Source of the DNA: Amphiscolops sp. MND2022
Taxonomy: Eukaryota
Length of the DNA: 64,000 bases
NCBI GenBank assembly: GCA_964187785.1
Contig: OZ076409.1
Coordinates: 11,906,001 to 11,970,000, forward strand
Direction: 5' to 3'
Shown in pieces: positions 1 through 61,715 of this stretch. The position numbers and the translations under genes are program-made. Under the pieces are notes generated by a model. It did no database searches. It was not told the DNA's origin and was given only the letters and a program-made list of their open reading frames with translations. The number at the start of each line of letters is the position of its first letter. Within the stretch, counting starts at the first letter, position 1.

Positions 1-38
1 ACTGTGATTGGTTAATTTGCAGGAGGCAGCCTGTGACA
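1..38 (-). repeat. First 38 bp of the 3' LTR of element A
   Basis: Exact match to 5940-5977, ending in TGTGACA on the + strand. Confidence 0.85.
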
Positions 39-1432
39 CTGCGGGTGGAATAAATAAAAACGACCCTGCATTAAGTCCATTCAATTAAGCTTCCTTCATA
101 ATTGCTGTCACGTAGGCCGGCTCACCTCTTGGTGTTGATCTCCTTATCACTCCCGTCATCAGAATAGGTGTGAACAATGCTCAAGTTGTTAATATCAAAT
201 ACACTCGTCTCAAGTGGGTAATTAACGAGTCGCTTGGAGGCAATTAACGGCACGCACCAAAGGTTTCTCTTAAAATGGTTTTAGCCAATCAAAATTGACT
301 TTCGATAAAATGGAAATTGGATAGTAAAATGGTGAAAATAATAACTAAAATAATCCAGAATGCGGAAATTCTAACTAAATGGTAATAAGGGCAACGGAAC
401 AAAACGGCAAAACGGAACAAGGTAAATGGCCATAATCGGCTTCTAACTAACTAATTTGTAAATAATGAGCAATCTTCTGTACATTTCGCTGGCAGACTCC
501 ATGCACAGTTTTAAATTCGTAAATAGCCATAAAATATTAACCCGGTAATCTCTTCAGCCACGAACTCGAACTTTCAATCTCTAGGATTGTCATTTATTCC
601 CATTTAGTTCCAATTCCATTACGATTTGTATTCTTTTAATTTTGAATTCTTTCGGCATCCCTATCTATGTACTGCATTGTTATGTACGTCCATTTGGGTT
701 CCAACACAGTTGCCGACTACATCTTCCTCGGAGTATTCCGGGGCATCATCCCCTTTTCAGCCGAGCTCGGCCACTTTCCCTAACTTCACCAGCCGAATGA
801 GGACGGTTACCCAGAAGGAGTTTCCATCACTGCAGGATGTCTTCAAACACAAGTTGATCTGGATTTTTATTTTGAACTAATTTAACTTGATCAGGGTTAA
901 AATTTGTTCACAAAATGCTTCCTGCTTCCATCACTAAACACGTGATAACACGTTTCATTCAAATTTTTAGAACACTTTCGAAAGGTTTCTGACGCGGCAA
1001 AATGGATTTCTTTCAAGGAAGCTAACCGCCAAATTTCATCTCTTTCTGTTTATAGAATCAGAACAAAGAGACTACTCGAACACCAGATCCCAATTCACCC
1101 GTGGGTACAGGTTATGCTGTTGTGTTTTCACCGCCCCTGTTTCCTCCTCTTAGAGTAGAGAGGTCCCCAAGTAGTACTGACAGTGTTGATATTACAGCTT
1201 ACGCTGACGAAAAGGTCAGACTCCATGCAGAGGCTCAATTGCTAGAAGGGTCACAGGTCGCTGAATCATTCATGGCGACCAAGAGACAAAGGACGAAGAA
1301 GGAAGAAGGGTAGATGCAGTAGGAGGAGAAGTAGAAGGAGAGGTAGAAGCAGAGGGAGGAAGGACTTTAAAAATGAAAAGGAAAAGAAGAAAAGAGAGCA
1401 GTGTTCCTTCTTGGACGCTTATTAATCTTTTC

Positions 1433-2683
1433 CTAGTATCTGAAGTCTTCTGAGTAGTTTGGATTAGGATTAGGTCTCAAATTATATCTTCCACCTCTAG
1501 GACTCAGACTTTCATTCCCTTCATCATTCTGCGATATTTCGGGCACGATAATATCATCCCCCCTTTTTGGAGATTTTTGTGCATCGCTTTCATTAGCAGA
1601 ATTTCGTTCTGAAACATTTGCATTGTTTTCTTGTCTTTCGGACAGATCCGGCAAAGATTTTTCTGGATTTTTGTGGTAAACGGCCGAATCCGGCCAATCA
1701 GAGTTTTCATTTCTAGTAGCTTCACTATCTCCATTTGCATTGCTGACGTCACTTTTCAGTCGTTTATCTCGACTGTGCTCTGTATCGTTGACGTCATTCG
1801 GACAATCAGTCGTGATTATGTAATCCGCTTCATTCTCGCTTGCGTTATCTGCGTTCGCTTTTGCCGTACTCGGTCTTTCTTCATTCGGCAAGCTAGCAGG
1901 AATAGGCTCGTTGCCTCGTGTAGCTAGCTGTTCACCAAAGTTTGTTTCCCACGTAACTGTGTACAAATCGTCCTGCGGAATGACAATTTCTTCGTCCGGC
2001 AGTAATCGCTCTTCTCGGAAAATGTCCTCAAGCGGTTGATTGGGGACAAACTTTTTGAGGCGAACTCGATTCAAGATCTGAGTTTTAAGGTTACTGTTGG
2101 TTGACAGGGGTATACAGTCTGGTTCACCATTTTTGGTAATGAGTACATTCTGGAACTGTCTCTCGTCTAGTAGCGATTGTGGAATTGATTCTGCACAGTT
2201 TTCGATATTCTCGGTTCCCAAGGGGTTTGGAAACACCGGATGGTTTAGCGCTATGGTTTTCTTGTTATGGGTAATTGGAGGGTTCTCGTGGACTGTCTTG
2301 TTGCAATGTTCAATATCGTCTAGAACATATTGAAATTGCAATAGATCCTGGTTGCAGATCTCAGTGTCCCAGTAGTGATCTCTTCCATAATCTGGGTCGA
2401 TGTATGTAGGGTTGTAGTCGTCTACTAAGGGAATGGGCCTGAATCGGGTAGTAAAGGTAGTTGTGTAATCAGGATCCCAAACAGGAATTGATTTCTGGAA
2501 CAAATGGGTATTATTATAGGTAATAATGATAGCTTTTTCAATTTGCTGCTGCCAGACAACAGAAGGATAGCCCATCAATTGTTGTTGGTAATTATGAAAG
2601 TTTTCGGTTTGAGGGTCCGATTTGATGTATTGACGGACAGAGACTTGTTGGTTGTATTGGAGTGGTGGCGAAGCTAGTTTTTT
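1433..2683 (-). pseudogene. Element A pol remnant: pre-protease region joined in frame to the integrase C-terminal tail
   Basis: Lies in the -1 frame relative to gag. The N-part aligns with element C pol (RPIPLxDxYNP...DPDxG...YWD; GEPDxxPLxTN) up to LK. It then jumps to TQILNRVRLKKF...GRYNLRPNPNPNYSEDFRY, which is typical of gypsy IN tails. Confidence 0.8.
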
Positions 2684-4392
2684 GACTCATCTTTGCTTGA
2701 TGAGGATTGGGAATTGGATGATGTTGGCTTGTGATGGGGTTTTGAGGATTTGGGGTCAGGATCGCTGTCCGACGAGTCCTCTGGCCTGGTGCGTTTGGGC
2801 TTGAGATGCGCACCAGCACCTTGCCAGCATCTCTCCTCAGGGTGGTTTGTCTTGCCACATGTCCCACATTTAGGATAAACCTTTTTCTGTGTGGGCTTGC
2901 CTTGTTGGGCATCTTTCTCCTTCTTCTTTTTGCGCTTTTCACAGTCTTTGACGATGTGGCCCTTTTCTTTGCAATAGTTGCAGGTAATGTCACTCATTTG
3001 GACGTTTGATGGAACAGTTTTTGTTTTTGTGGCTGAAGACGTCATTGATGCCATTGGTAGGTCATGAGATTCTTCAAGCGCGTTTAGCTCCAATTCTCTC
3101 TCAAGATGAGCGACAATTTCGTCATAGGAGCCGTTCTCTAATCTGGCCATATTTACTGATCTTTTTTGCTTGGGCGGCAGTTTTGCGTATAGGAGACTGT
3201 CAGTAATCTTTTGGGCATGGTCTCCGAATGCTTTTTCTGCGCCTTGATTCAGCTCTTCAAAAAAATGTGGTAGTTTTGTCGTATTTGGATCAAATACCAG
3301 ACGGTGCCATTTATGTTTGGCAGTTGCTTGAGATTCGGGTTTGACGTATTTCCGTCTGAAGATGACTAATACGTCCTCGAGAGTTTGTCTGTTAGCTGTG
3401 CTAATGTTTCGGAATGTTTGCAGAGCGTTTTTTCTCAAAAGCGAATGAAAATGAATAATTTTCATCTGCTCGGACATCAACTTGATCATCGTGTGGAATA
3501 GATATACGAACAGCCCGAACTTCTTGCTTTTGCCGTCAAAAGTCATAGTGTTTGAGTTGACTGGGCGGATAGTGGGTTGTTGGGCTGTTGGACGGTTCTG
3601 CATACTGGTCAAGACATCAGCTAGCCTGTTGATAGGGTCTTGTTCCGGGGCCGGAACGGTCCTTTCTTGTGCTGGGATCGTCGTGTCGAGCAGGGGATTG
3701 AGGTCATCATGGGATCGGTTGAGATGACTTCTTGATGGCATTCGTCCCGTGAGAAACTCAGGAATATCAGTTGGAGATTCGTTTTCTCCTGTCACCATGT
3801 CGTAAGCACGCGCGTTTGTGGATGTAGTTGGACCGTCTTTCTGACAGTCCATAAATGGCTTACTTCTCGAGTTATCTCTGGAATCTGAGTTTCGCAGAAC
3901 TTCGGAATATCCTTCCGGTCTCTCGGCCGGAACGTTCCATCTTTCTCTGGTCAAATGTCCCGATCCGGCCACAATGGCATTTTGAATCTGGGGTAAAACC
4001 TGATTGCTAATTGCATCATTTATGGCTCTCTGTATCTGAACACTGACACTATTCATCATCTCGTCCATCTCTCTAGATATTCGGGAATTCAATTCACTCG
4101 ACAGTCTATTTATCTCAGCACTAGAATTACCTCCAGCAGAGTTTTGGCCGTAATCGGCATTTGGACTAAGTCCGTCATTTCTTGAATTTAAGTACCTGTT
4201 TTCATCATTATTTTCAAATTGATCACCAAAAGTACTTTCAGGTCTTCTGGTTTGATTACTACTGAGGCTTTCATCTCTCTCATTTCTACTGAAATGGTTT
4301 TCTCCGAGCATCATATCTACATTTTCAATGTCCGAAATTATCTCAACTCCTCTAGATTTTCTGGTTTTCTTCTGCTTTCTTGTTGTAGGCAT
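2674..4392 (-). CDS. gag: Gag-like polyprotein of element A (572 aa, open); N-terminal 198 codons probably inside the LTR
   Basis: CNYCKEKGHIVKDC and CGTCGKTNHPEERC knuckles; strong similarity to element C gag. Confidence 0.85.
   Translation of the reverse strand: MPTTRKQKKTRKSRGVEIISDIENVDMMLGENHFSRNERDESLSSNQTRRPESTFGDQFENNDENRYLNSRNDGLSPNADYGQNSAGGNSSAEINRLSSELNSRISREMDEMMNSVSVQIQRAINDAISNQVLPQIQNAIVAGSGHLTRERWNVPAERPEGYSEVLRNSDSRDNSRSKPFMDCQKDGPTTSTNARAYDMVTGENESPTDIPEFLTGRMPSRSHLNRSHDDLNPLLDTTIPAQERTVPAPEQDPINRLADVLTSMQNRPTAQQPTIRPVNSNTMTFDGKSKKFGLFVYLFHTMIKLMSEQMKIIHFHSLLRKNALQTFRNISTANRQTLEDVLVIFRRKYVKPESQATAKHKWHRLVFDPNTTKLPHFFEELNQGAEKAFGDHAQKITDSLLYAKLPPKQKRSVNMARLENGSYDEIVAHLERELELNALEESHDLPMASMTSSATKTKTVPSNVQMSDITCNYCKEKGHIVKDCEKRKKKKEKDAQQGKPTQKKVYPKCGTCGKTNHPEERCWQGAGAHLKPKRTRPEDSSDSDPDPKSSKPHHKPTSSNSQSSSSKDESKN
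3786..3797 (-). other. Putative primer binding site TGGTGACAGGAG (tRNA-Leu-like) of element A
   Basis: Immediately follows TACGACA; identical in element C; resembles the TGGTGTCAGGAG complement of tRNA-Leu(CAG) 3' ends. Confidence 0.7.
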
Positions 4393-5977
4393 TAGAAAGA
4401 AAGTCCGAGGTAAAACAGTGAATTAGGTTTTATTCGGAAAATAGGATTTTGTACGTTGTATCGTAAACAGGTATATCAAACTAAACTTGGAGAAGCAAAA
4501 TACAATTGTGTCCCTCTCGGAAAAATACCAATATATATACCCCTGAGAGGGTGACACTCACATTCCTTTTTAACAATCTATTTACAAATTCCATAAAGGG
4601 CACATGACCATGGCGGGTGACCACTAACATTCATTCATTTTTAGCGGCGTCAACTGCATCAAAGCACTTAGGAATTTGTCCCGTTAGGGCCAAAGGGAAT
4701 TCATACCTAATTCATTCGCAGCAAAATCATTTAAAGTTTACATAAAATATGGAATGCACTCAAATGCATTTTCTAACTGCAAATACTATCATCAAAGGGG
4801 AGCGGAGGAATTTAGCCTTATTATAATAGGCAAACAACACTTTGACCAAACATCAAAACTAATACTTTCAAATTGTTTACAGTGAGAGGAATGTAAACTA
4901 TTTAGCGGCACGTGCCTACACACGTGCGTAGAATCAACAAAACAAAGACACAGTTTCATGCAATAGAAATGAACATAATATAGCAATATGGCCTAATACG
5001 GCCATTGGACTTGGGAGCTGGCCAATAGTGAAGGCCGGAATAGGACAGGTGACGGGTATTCGGATTGCTACTACTGGTCGTTATTATTGCACTAATTGGA
5101 TTTAAAAAGCTCATTAACATCTTCAAGTATATAAATATAATCTTACATGACTGTAAAACAAACTCATTCATGCTTAAAAGCATCTCTAATAATAATAAGC
5201 AAAATGGCCTAAACCGGCCATTTGCCTTTTGTCCTGCATTACCAATCTAATATAACGTCAAGTGGCCATATACGGCCAATCAATTAAAAATGTGTACAGC
5301 GCTTTACACAATCTGGCCTGAATAGGCTAATTGCCTCGTATTAAGTAAACATTATTAAAATACTGGTCAAACGGCCTTAACCGTCTGAAAAAGCCAAGTC
5401 TGTGGTGTAGTTAGTTAATACTGCACTAGAGGGGTTATTCAGCCTAAGAGTACAAGCACATGAATCCTGGTTAATAATTAGCATCACAATTGCGCTTTTG
5501 TGAAATGGCCGGAACCGGCCGTCTGACTGGATATTTATTAAAAGTAGCGAAGTTATGTCCACAGGCCTTATTCGGCCATTAATGAATGGAAATATTAACT
5601 GCGTAGCAAATGGAGTAATTTGATTGGACAAGGCCGCGTGCTCAAGTGACGTATCTGGTACGGGATTTTATCAATAGCAACTATAATTAAAACAATTACC
5701 AATACCTCTTCTAACACTTTTAATCATGGCATCTGACGTATTAAGACAGCTTCAAGTACTTTCCAAGAAAATACACAGCACTACTGATTAAATAGCACAG
5801 ATTACTTGATAAAAGCTAAATAGGCCGGAACCGGCCATTGGACCAGCGTCCGCGAGCATAGTGGTTAGATTAAGGCAAGCGGCCATAACCGGCCAAATAT
5901 TGTATTGCTGAGAGATAATACTAATACTAGCTATACTGCACTGTGATTGGTTAATTTGCAGGAGGCAGCCTGTGACA
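3798..5977 (-). repeat. Inferred 5' LTR of element A (about 2.18 kb)
   Basis: TGTC...GACA termini; outer end fixed by the match to 1-38; inner end inferred from the adjacent PBS. Confidence 0.65.
4532..4560 (-). promoter_or_regulatory. LTR core promoter TGAGTGTCAC-N11-TATA (element A)
   Basis: Same motif and spacing at 59793-59819 in element C; AATAAA at 4434-4429 downstream. Confidence 0.55.
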
Positions 5978-6083
5978 TCCCTCTTTTTGTGTCCTTTCAC
6001 TATACCCCCCCCCCCCTAGAGAAAAAGAATATATTCTTTTTCTCTAGGGGGGGGGTATAGTGAAAGGACACAAAAAGAGGGAT
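5977..6083. repeat. Spacerless palindrome of about 107 bp
   Basis: Arms are perfect reverse complements around GAATA|TATTC, except a C12 versus G9 run. Confidence 0.9.
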
Positions 6084-7531: not shown

Positions 7532-7729
7532 TGTTGTAACTCTCTTCTATAACTGTGAATAACATTGACAATTCAAACTTTATTCTATCTTGTTCTGAGA
7601 CTTTATGATAGTTCATCATCTGCATACAATAGGCAGGTACTTGATAAAAAGAACATCAACAGTATAGTAATAATCATATAAATACAGACTAATTAACATG
7701 TATGTAAAGAGTCTGAGTCCTCTACTACA
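7532..7729 (-). repeat. 3' LTR of element B
   Basis: TG...CA termini; preceded on minus by PPT GAAGGGGGGAA (7730-7740). Confidence 0.97.
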
Positions 7730-13379: not shown

Positions 13380-13577
13380 TGTTGTAACTCTCTTCTATAA
13401 CTGTGAAAAACATTGACAATTCAAACTTTATTCTATCTTGTTCTGAGACTTTATGATAGTTCATCATCTGCATACAATAGGCAGGTACTTGATAAAAAGA
13501 TCATCAACAGTATAGTAATAATCATATAAATACAGACTAATTAACATGTATGTAAAGAGTCTGAGTCCTCTACTACA
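13380..13577 (-). repeat. 5' LTR of element B
   Basis: 196/198 identical to 7532-7729. Confidence 0.97.
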
Positions 13578-59064: not shown

Positions 59065-60578
59065 TGTCGCAGGCTGCCGCCTGTGACGGCGTGGCTTACC
59101 AAATAACCCCGGAAAATGATCTCAACAACCCAGGACTAGGTGTCCTGCCAATATAAAATAAACACTTAGAACTCATGTGATATACTACTATATATTGTTG
59201 CATTACTCAATACACAATAATCATAATCATTGGGTGCTTAAATTACATGTGATTCACAATTATTTCAATATGTTGACCTAAGGTCAGTTTGATGGCAATC
59301 ACTCACTTTAGTATACTAAAGTGTCAAAACGTTAGCGAAACACCCTACTCATTTGCAAATTATTGTATCAGTGCTAATACAAAACCTGTTGCAGTTAAAA
59401 TACCAATGTGAAGTTGACGTAGTTAATATCAACTAGTAAAGAGTGAAGACAATGCATTCACCTGCCACTATGTTGCTGCCGGGTCGACGCGCAGTACGCT
59501 GTACCCTTGTCCAAATAAATATAGCAAAATGTATTTAGTTGCCGCCACGTGGACGCAAGGTCCACTTAGCCGATAAAAGTTAGATGTTGTTCCCCAGTGC
59601 ATGAAATGTTGCTTACTAGTATTAGCATACTTTAACATAACTGCCGCTTCTATTTATAGAATTTTGGATTAGTGACGTAATATCTCTAGTGACGCCATGT
59701 TCTATTTATAATATCTGTGATGTCATAGTTAGATTGATCGCTATTTTTATAATGATGTCATTCCTATTTTTACTTAATGACACTCAGAATATTGAGTGTC
59801 ACGGATGTAAAAGTATAAATAGGAGGAATTTGTTACTAGAAATTCATTCAATACCTGCTTTGTGATACAATTGACACTGTTGATACAATTCTGATCATTC
59901 GAAATTTACTGTTGAAACGTTATTTTCTTATTGACATGCCTTCTACCAGGAAGCAGAAAGCTAAAGAAAAGCGAGCAAGACAATCTGACGTAATGTCAGA
60001 CGTAGAAAACCTTGATATAATGCTTGGAAGTTATTCCAGAGATGCACAAGTAGAGCAAGGTAACATTAGTGACGTTGAAGGGGACTTTGAGTCTGATAGA
60101 CGCCAACAGAGCACCGACTTAGTCGAAGGAAACTTCAGGTCACTCTTGAATACCAATGTAAGTGAAAATAGTGAAATTACGGCTGAAACTATGAGAGCAA
60201 TTAACTCAGAAATTTCATCGCAAATGTCCAGAAAATTAGATGAAATGAAATCAGATTTGAATTTGCAAATAATGGATGCTATAAACTCAGCAATTCAGGA
60301 AAAGGTACTTCCCTCCATTGAAAATACGTTAAATTCGGTTAAAACCACTCAAAACACAAAATGGGACATTCGGTCAGATGGACGGCATTCCAGTTTAGTA
60401 GGACAGTCTGCCTCCAATAGTGACCCTCGGTCAAGTGGACGGCACCAAAGCGCACAAGCACCGTTAGACTTGAAATCAAGTGGAAATCGGCCAAAATCTA
60501 ACCTTAAAGAGAGTAACCTTTACAATCGCTCCAGAGATAGTTCCGTAGATTCTATTGAGAGCGATGTCGTTTACGACA
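59065..60578 (+). repeat. Inferred 5' LTR of element C (about 1.51 kb)
   Basis: TGTCG...CGACA inverted termini, followed directly by PBS-like TGGTGACAGGAG (60579-60590). Confidence 0.65.
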
Positions 60579-61715
60579 TGGTGACAGGAGCCAAACTTAC
60601 CCCACATATAGTCCCAGAATTCCTGACTATGATTCCTGACTATTCCTGAACATCAACAAAACGATGATAATGACGACACGCTGGATACAACCCTTCCAGC
60701 ACAACAACCAATACGTACCAACACCACGGAGGGCATCACCGAACCTCCAGTTGACCCCATTAATAGACTTGCAGATGTGATTATGGGGATGAATACGAAA
60801 CCATCCACACAAACCCTCATGGTACGCCCAGTCAATACCACAACACTGACCTTCGACGGCAAATCTGAAAAGTTTGAACTGTTTGAGGATCTTTTCCACA
60901 CGATGATAAAGATGCAACCAGACATGTCGGAAGCAATGAAAATTAACCATTTTTACTCACTGCTCCGCAAAAATGCATTGCAGACATTCCGCAACATCAG
61001 TTCGGCAAACAGACAAACTCTCGAGAATGTCCTAGCCGTCTTTCGCAGTAAATATGTGAAACCAGAGTCCCAGGCAACGGCCAAACACAAATGACATAAA
61101 CTGGTTTTTGACCCAAATACCATGAAATTACCTGACTTTTTAGAAGAACTCAACCAAGGCGCTGAGAAAGCCTTCAGTGAACACGCACAAGCCATGATTG
61201 ACAGCCTGCTATACGCCAAACTACCACCAAAACTCAAACGTTCAGTCAATATGGCGCGATTAGAGAACGCTACATATGAAGAAATTGTCACTCACTTAGA
61301 ACGTGAGCTCGAACTTAATGGACTTGAGGAAGGCGACGACATTCCCGTTCCCACAATGTCCACCACCCCGACAACAACACGATCGGGTAAAGGCGTCCTT
61401 TCTTCTGGCATTGACCCAAACGTCACTTGCAACTATTGCAAGAAACTGGGACATGTCAAGGACGATTGCAGAAAATTGAAAAGAAAGGAAGAACAAAAGC
61501 TCAACGATGGGCAGGGCACCAAAAGGGAGTACCCGAAATGCCCGACTTGTGGCAAAAAAAACCACCCGGCCGAACGATGTTGGAAAGGAGCTGGAGCCCA
61601 CCTCAAGCCCAAAAACCTCAAACTGCATAACGACCAACCTGAGGAATCGACTTCCAGTCAAAAAGACGATACAAACAAACAGAATACTTCCATCCTTAAA
61701 AACTCAAAAAACTAA
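59936..61715 (+). pseudogene. gag: Element C gag (frameshift near 60630, TGG>TGA at 61092)
   Basis: Collinear with element A gag; CNYCKKLGHVKDDC and CPTCGKKNHPAERC knuckles. Confidence 0.88.

Follow-up and report, generated by a model that had tools for sequence, protein, structure and literature searches.

Element A, an LTR retrotransposon on the minus strand of the DNA analysed here, probably begins its gag gene far inside its own long terminal repeat. On the sequence available, we regard A with good confidence as a complete, very young, pol-deleted element of the Ty3/gypsy type, whose gag frame opens 198 codons inside the 2,180-nt LTR, stays open across the LTR end and reads on through a 12-nt primer-binding site (PBS) for tRNA-Leu(CAG). 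The first third of Gag would then likely be translated from the U5 region of the 5' LTR. With about 200 codons in the LTR, the layout is a lengthened Ty3/gypsy counterpart of the arrangement in Ty1, and it recurs in further families of the same genome.

Element A and its probable gag start within the LTR

The window, by which we mean the whole stretch of 64,000 nucleotides under analysis, corresponds to G000:C1:11906001-11970000 of a 1.07-Gb eukaryotic assembly and was compared with its flanks. Coordinates of all features are collected in Table 1. A is a complete LTR retrotransposon of 8,120 nt in total. The preliminary description had predicted a 3' LTR in the left flank that matches the 5' LTR including the ORF and ends at a target site duplication (TSD). 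Such a copy is present: it measures 2,180 nt, is 99.9% identical to the 5' LTR (approximately 2 differences; window 3798-5977 against L011:6859-9000 plus window 1-38), spans the whole ORF segment and thus runs past position 4392, and is followed by TCCCT at L011:6854-6858. Both LTRs have TG...CA termini. A blastn extension of the repeat down to 3790 turned out to be a spurious gapped and mismatched tail, and the true end is 3798. The gag ATG at 4392 corresponds to LTR position 1586 of 2180. With 198 codons (198.3) inside the LTR and the PBS directly after it, the junction lies exactly where the same description had placed it within the gag frame.

Table 1. Coordinates of the features of elements A and C in the window.
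Feature	Position	Strand	Remarks
A 5' LTR	3798..5977	-	2,180 nt, TGTCAC...ACGACA; end toward gag at 3798
A 3' LTR, first 38 nt (U3 end)	1..38	-	remainder left of the window, L011:6859-9000 = G000:C1:11903859-11906000
A TSD TCCCT, right copy	5978..5982	.	left copy at L011:6854-6858
Expected polypurine-tract site of A	39..60	-	immediately upstream of the 3' LTR; flank sequence, not purine-rich
A gag ORF	2674..4392	-	572 codons, CCHC zinc knuckle
LTR-borne first 198 gag codons of A	3798..4392	-	basic N-terminus, variable linker, conserved helix-modelled region (residues 89-143)
A LTR terminal octamer TTACGACA (U5 att end)	3798..3805	-	last 6 nt invariant in the 9 elements having the junction
A PBS TGGTGACAGGAG	3786..3797	-	directly after the LTR end; in frame part of the M-V-T-G codons
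A promoter block GAGTGTCAC...GTATATAT (TATA box)	4533..4559	-	148 nt upstream of the gag ATG; no ATG between
AATAAA, candidate poly(A) signal	4429..4434	-	leader; 42 nt before the gag ATG
A ORF2, pro-pol remnant	1433..2575	-	380 aa from ATG; open frame 1436-2686 overlaps the gag end in the -1 frame
C 5' LTR	59065..60578	+	1,514 nt; 3' LTR at about 74047-75560, outside the window
C LTR-borne gag start	59936..60649	+	214 codons inside the LTR
C PBS	60579..60590	+	12-mer identical to that of A

A clear polypurine tract was looked for in the flank ahead of the 3' LTR of A and not found. The sequence before the 3' LTR reads CACCCGC(A/T)G in A and in E2 and E13, two copies of a related family described below, and is not purine-rich; the elements of type C have only a short GGGGAG there. 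As a side observation, a 107-nt perfect palindrome with 37-nt arms (window 5977-6083) starts exactly at the TSD of A, and the insertion site appears to be the edge of a foldback or MITE-like sequence.

Relatives of the A Gag are numerous in the protein database (1,879 at E<=0.001), and most of the best 120 cover 100% of the query. Full-length relatives of approximately 570 aa are abundant. Besides these, many short ORFs of 100-250 aa, forming hundreds of clusters, match only the N-terminal part of Gag, as is expected from 3' LTRs and solo LTRs. An AlphaFold2 model of the A Gag, built on an alignment of 12 rows, reaches a mean pLDDT of 43.5, and its sole confident part is a helix at residues 89-143 (pLDDT 80-88). 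The LTR-borne part is thus modelled as mostly disordered with this one long helix. A search of the ESM Atlas with residues 1-215 returned no usable match.

Downstream of gag, ORF2 aligns with an intact relative such that the first approximately 200 aa of the post-gag ORF are fused to the last approximately 220 aa of pol; A has therefore undergone an internal deletion of pol. No core of protease (PR), reverse transcriptase (RT), RNase H or integrase (IN) is retained. The deletion junction, represented by a 401-nt probe (window 1900-2300), is covered by all 40 scored genomic matches at 90-100% identity, and the LTR/ORF segment likewise finds 40 out of 40 scored matches at 99-100%. Hence, A is one copy of a young, abundant, non-autonomous family. 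Its PR, RT and IN would have to be supplied in trans by 16-kb relatives, for instance the E13 family.

The LTR/PBS junction in ten elements

The window contains exactly two copies of a 20-mer comprising the last 8 nt of the LTR and the 12-nt PBS, one at 3786-3805 (-) and one at 60571-60590 (+); none is expected from 100 shuffles. In frame, it reads Y-D-M-V-T-G. Its nucleotide identity in A and in element C had been noted before and is exact, and the view of this site as an LTR end joined to a PBS also held: TGGTGACAGGAG is complementary to tRNA-Leu(CAG) at its 3' end, covering the last 9 nt plus CCA. A gene for this tRNA was called in the same genome by both ARAGORN and Rfam (L047:1439-1520). 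A pattern search of the genome for the matching tRNA 3' end gave 1,068 forward and 20 reverse occurrences. Four more loci carrying this 3' motif were sampled; ARAGORN called no tRNA at any of them, nor did Rfam at the three on which it was run. As four out of five sampled dispersed loci thus lack a tRNA gene call, the dispersed tRNA-Leu-type 3' ends may be tRNA-derived repeats or SINEs. Of the 1,068 forward occurrences (TTCGAATCCCACTCCTGTCA and variants), many lie in a tandem array on contig C8 (G000:C8:35587100-35631900) with a spacing of approximately 240-300 nt.

The LTR of element C ends at the same position of the 20-mer as that of A, 214 codons into the ORF. Its 3' LTR was not found within 10 kb to the right of the window and sits about 15 kb downstream; the two LTRs are 98.9% identical over 1,514 nt, the TSD is CTAAT, and the whole element has 16,496 nt. 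The gag frame of C is broken after codon 237, which is 23 codons past the LTR end. A 97%-identical copy of C on contig C12 carries an intact gag of 595 codons.

The preliminary description further held that the LTR-borne ORFs of A and C are both open and conserved as protein, while the U3 regions upstream do not align. The protein part stands: the two LTR-borne products share approximately 30% identity, with the basic N-terminus and the long helical block as the conserved parts, and the N-terminal MP(S/T)TRKQK is kept between lineages whose DNA is past alignment. For U3, global nucleotide identity compared with that of the ORF part was uninformative, as the values hardly exceeded the shuffled baseline; a blastn alignment of the A and C LTRs, used instead (word size 7, E<=0.01), found nothing beyond the 20-mer. 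Two further observations concern the opposite LTR end. Lineages share a conserved stretch of approximately 25 nt at the very start of the LTR (e.g., 59065-59090 (+) and 5950-5977 (-)), and in C-type elements the 5' end forms a near-perfect palindrome, GTCGCAGGC GGCC GCCTGCGAC.

A protein search with the LTR-borne ORF of C gave 157 matches. Among the 150 listed, most lie in open frames of approximately 600 codons, and several matches occur as pairs 6-15 kb apart. Seven regions were taken from such pairs, and E2 and E13, two copies of an A-lineage family, were found via the database protein P0050. Altogether, ten elements of at least seven families from this one genome were examined: A; Cwin, C12, C9, C10, C7, C4 and C8; E2 and E13. 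All ten possess LTR pairs, which are 97-100% identical. In nine of them, representing at least six families, the LTR end ...ACGACA is followed directly by the same 12-mer, and eight show clean TSDs of 5 bp, no two of them alike. Seven elements have an intact gag of 570-598 codons; the frame is broken in Cwin, C4 and C8. The Ty1-type layout was recovered: the gag ATG precedes the LTR end, and the frame is open across the PBS. The number of gag codons upstream of the LTR end amounts to 198 in A, 195 in E2 and E13, 214 in Cwin and C12, 215 in C9 and C10, 216 in C7, and 252 in C4. E13 is 16.06 kb long and has identical LTRs as well as long gag and pol frames.

Some elements deviate individually. 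C8 has neither the junction motif nor a TSD. The locus of C7 is rearranged, the 187 nt upstream of both LTR copies being identical; the element lies in a local duplication (G000:C7:53007001-53031000, L039-L041), where another stretch, of 254 nt, occurs twice at a distance of 18.5 kb. The high codon count of C4 (L037-L038) results from an insertion of approximately 38 codons, made up of repeated DLRSDG-like units, which is common to its close relative C8.

Upstream of the gag ATG, a block of the form GAGTGTCA(C/T)...GTATA(A/T)A(A/T) is conserved across lineages at a distance of 113-148 nt. Between this TATA block and the gag start, no ATG occurs in seven out of the eight elements in which the block was found by pattern, with approximately 2 expected; C9 has one ATG there, and C4 carries a variant TATA outside the search pattern. 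A canonical poly(A) hexamer in the LTR was sought across the families and none is conserved, which leaves the split between R and U5 uncertain. AATAAA is seen 22-42 nt ahead of the ATG in A and in the C4/C8 pair.

From this arrangement, we propose the following course of events. Transcription would start approximately 30 nt past the TATA box, with the LTR ATG as the first AUG in the genomic RNA. R would extend over the short distance from the transcription start to a poly(A) site near the ATG, and U5 would comprise approximately 600-650 coding nucleotides, with a minus-strand strong-stop DNA of approximately 700-760 nt. Both LTRs would receive the gag start during reverse transcription. In the invariant 20-mer, the integrase end (ACGACA) would be joined to the PBS, and the combination happens to read Y/H-D-M-V-T-G. 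As this peptide is encoded by att and PBS nucleotides, its conservation is probably driven by the nucleotides and not by the protein.

Selection on the LTR-borne codons and alternative readings

Across lineages, the LTR-borne codons evolve under purifying selection, as had been suggested for an LTR-encoded domain of this retrotransposon lineage on first description, and this selection is frame-specific. For eight C-type pairs, pN/pS in frame is 0.27-0.49 (bootstrap upper bounds <=0.61; Fisher p 4e-10 to 4e-19). Between A and the C-type families it is 0.63-0.70 (p 5e-5 to 8e-8), and between A and its autonomous relative E13, computed in frame only, 0.33 (p 3e-21). The shifted frames +1 and +2 give 0.9-1.7, both for the C-type pairs and for A against the C-type families. 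Variable sites between A and E13 are distributed as 95/87/163 over the three codon positions of 214 codons. For pairs of families, dN/dS (Nei-Gojobori) is 0.17-0.36 in the LTR-borne part versus 0.06-0.13 in internal gag. All of these are pairwise estimates from non-independent pairs with a common history, and dS approaches saturation (0.5-0.77 raw). Cis-acting nucleotide constraints that overlap the codons would lower dS and hence work against the selection signal.

These data also bear on where Gag begins. The junction itself creates an in-frame ATG from the CA of the LTR end and the TGG of the PBS, with G at -3 and at +4, and in most LTR elements gag starts after the PBS. Gag could initiate at this ATG or at a later one, with the LTR-borne frame as an untranslated leader that stays open. 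We judge this very unlikely. The frame is open for 195-216 codons in all seven intact elements, the purifying selection is frame-specific, the N-terminal motif persists between lineages whose DNA is unalignable, and the leader from the TATA box to the LTR ATG is free of ATGs. Quite unlikely, too, is that selection on the LTR-borne frame chiefly maintains a short, separate Gag-N product of 3' and solo LTRs, comparable to the accessory ORFs found in the LTRs of other retroelements, with the fusion to gag in the 5' LTR being secondary. Every LTR does have a TATA block, a leader, an ATG and approximately 200 codons, and the hundreds of short-ORF clusters noted above match only this part. Against it, the frame runs into gag without a stop in 7/7 intact elements, and selection via Gag suffices, the LTRs being regenerated from the 5' copy in each cycle. 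The chance that the repeats are no LTRs at all, but a segmental duplication or an assembly artefact that includes the gag start, is practically negligible: one locus (C7) does lie within a local duplication, but eight independent insertions with different 5-bp TSDs and TG...CA ends are at hand, the repeat always ends exactly at the tRNA-complementary 12-mer, and the LTR identities are 97-100%. We retain the reading of a gag gene that starts in the LTR and is likely translated across the PBS.

How this layout arose may be imagined as follows, although we consider the scenario unlikely. Priming would have moved to a tRNA-Leu-complementary site inside gag, and the LTR would have taken in the 5' leader plus a third of gag, since the PBS sets the end of U5, and all sequence ahead of it ends up in both LTRs. 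The 3' and solo LTRs would have become promoter-plus-ORF cassettes from which helical Gag-N fragments could arise. If this is true, every 3' and solo LTR in the 1-Gb genome is a self-contained cassette that may yield Gag-N fused to neighbouring sequence, and such fragments could serve copy-number control or be co-opted by host genes.

Relation to known elements and further observations

In C, the Pfam domains of pol follow the order gag-asp_proteas, RVT_1, RT_RNaseH, Integrase_H2C2 and rve. Judged by domain content and order, the pol genes are of Ty3/gypsy type. Ty1/copia was rejected as superfamily, as RT and RNase H precede IN. A BEL/Pao identity had been considered from precomputed PF03564 matches on many gag relatives, which are the only BEL-like trace; A's own gag has no PF03564 match, and no BEL/Pao Pfam domain (Peptidase_A17 or DUF1758-type protease) was found at E<=0.01. 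This assignment was dropped in view of the Ty3/gypsy-type pol domains.

The closest known layout is that of Ty1 and Ty2 of Saccharomyces cerevisiae (Ty1/copia), where gag starts in the LTR and the PBS is translated. In Ty1, the GAG ATG lies inside the LTR, but only a few to about a dozen GAG codons are contained in the 334-nt LTR, compared to 195-216 codons (approximately 600-650 nt) here. The primer of Ty1 is tRNA-iMet and its IN is encoded before RT, whereas here the primer site corresponds to tRNA-Leu(CAG) and the order is PR-RT-RH-IN. Protein-coding sequence that lies in an LTR, and hence occurs twice per provirus, is also known from retroviruses: MMTV sag and the 3' part of HIV nef are ORFs in U3, accessory genes expressed from the 3' end of the genome. 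An accessory ORF of this type was rejected for the present elements, whose ORF is located past the promoter and its TATA block, in R/U5, is continuous with gag and is the start of gag itself, not a separate frame in U3. Finally, internally deleted non-autonomous LTR elements that retain gag form a general class. A resembles them in having LTRs, PBS and an intact gag without PR, RT and IN, and in its many near-identical copies; it differs in that its gag is partly LTR-borne.

For Ty1, one source places the start of the genomic RNA inside the 5' LTR, at nt +238 (10.1101/176248), and another mentions 'silent substitutions in PBS' of a helper element, which locates the PBS within the GAG coding sequence (PMC6844567). 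No description of a long LTR-borne gag start was found in the open-access literature, and the available parts of PMC3601003, PMC7175516 and PMC13524379 are silent on it. The elements described here extend the principle of Ty1 by more than one order of magnitude, in a Ty3/gypsy lineage.

This has consequences for annotation and for the understanding of such elements. LTRs are usually handled as non-coding; annotation pipelines mask them and let gag begin past the PBS. In the present elements, approximately 600 nt of each LTR are conserved coding sequence, gag models begun after the PBS miss a third of the protein, and clocks based on LTR divergence combine sites with and without constraint. Both the primer site and the integrase end double as codons, such that cis signals and protein sequence constrain each other, and the strong-stop DNA needed for reverse transcription would be unusually long. 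Among 3' and solo LTRs, thousands bear a promoter together with an open 5' fragment of the gene whose frame continues into host DNA.

Several further open frames were observed in the 16-kb elements. Between pol and the 3' LTR, approximately 4.5 kb of conserved antisense open frames are located (in C at L012:3005-7265 (-), corresponding to window coordinates of about 67005-71265). They were found in C, C12, C9, C10, C7 and E13, share the motif ...LFHH.FLQ...GEYSLEF and show only a weak C2H2 match in Pfam. Just upstream of the 3' LTR, a sense frame of 240-296 codons (L012:9126-9998 (+), about 73126-73998 in window coordinates), also seen in C12, C9, C10 and E13, matches no Pfam family. Elsewhere in the window, two direct repeats of 198 nt (7532-7729 and 13380-13577) with 99% identity lie 5.85 kb from each other and enclose minus-strand ORFs; they probably delimit another LTR element, B.
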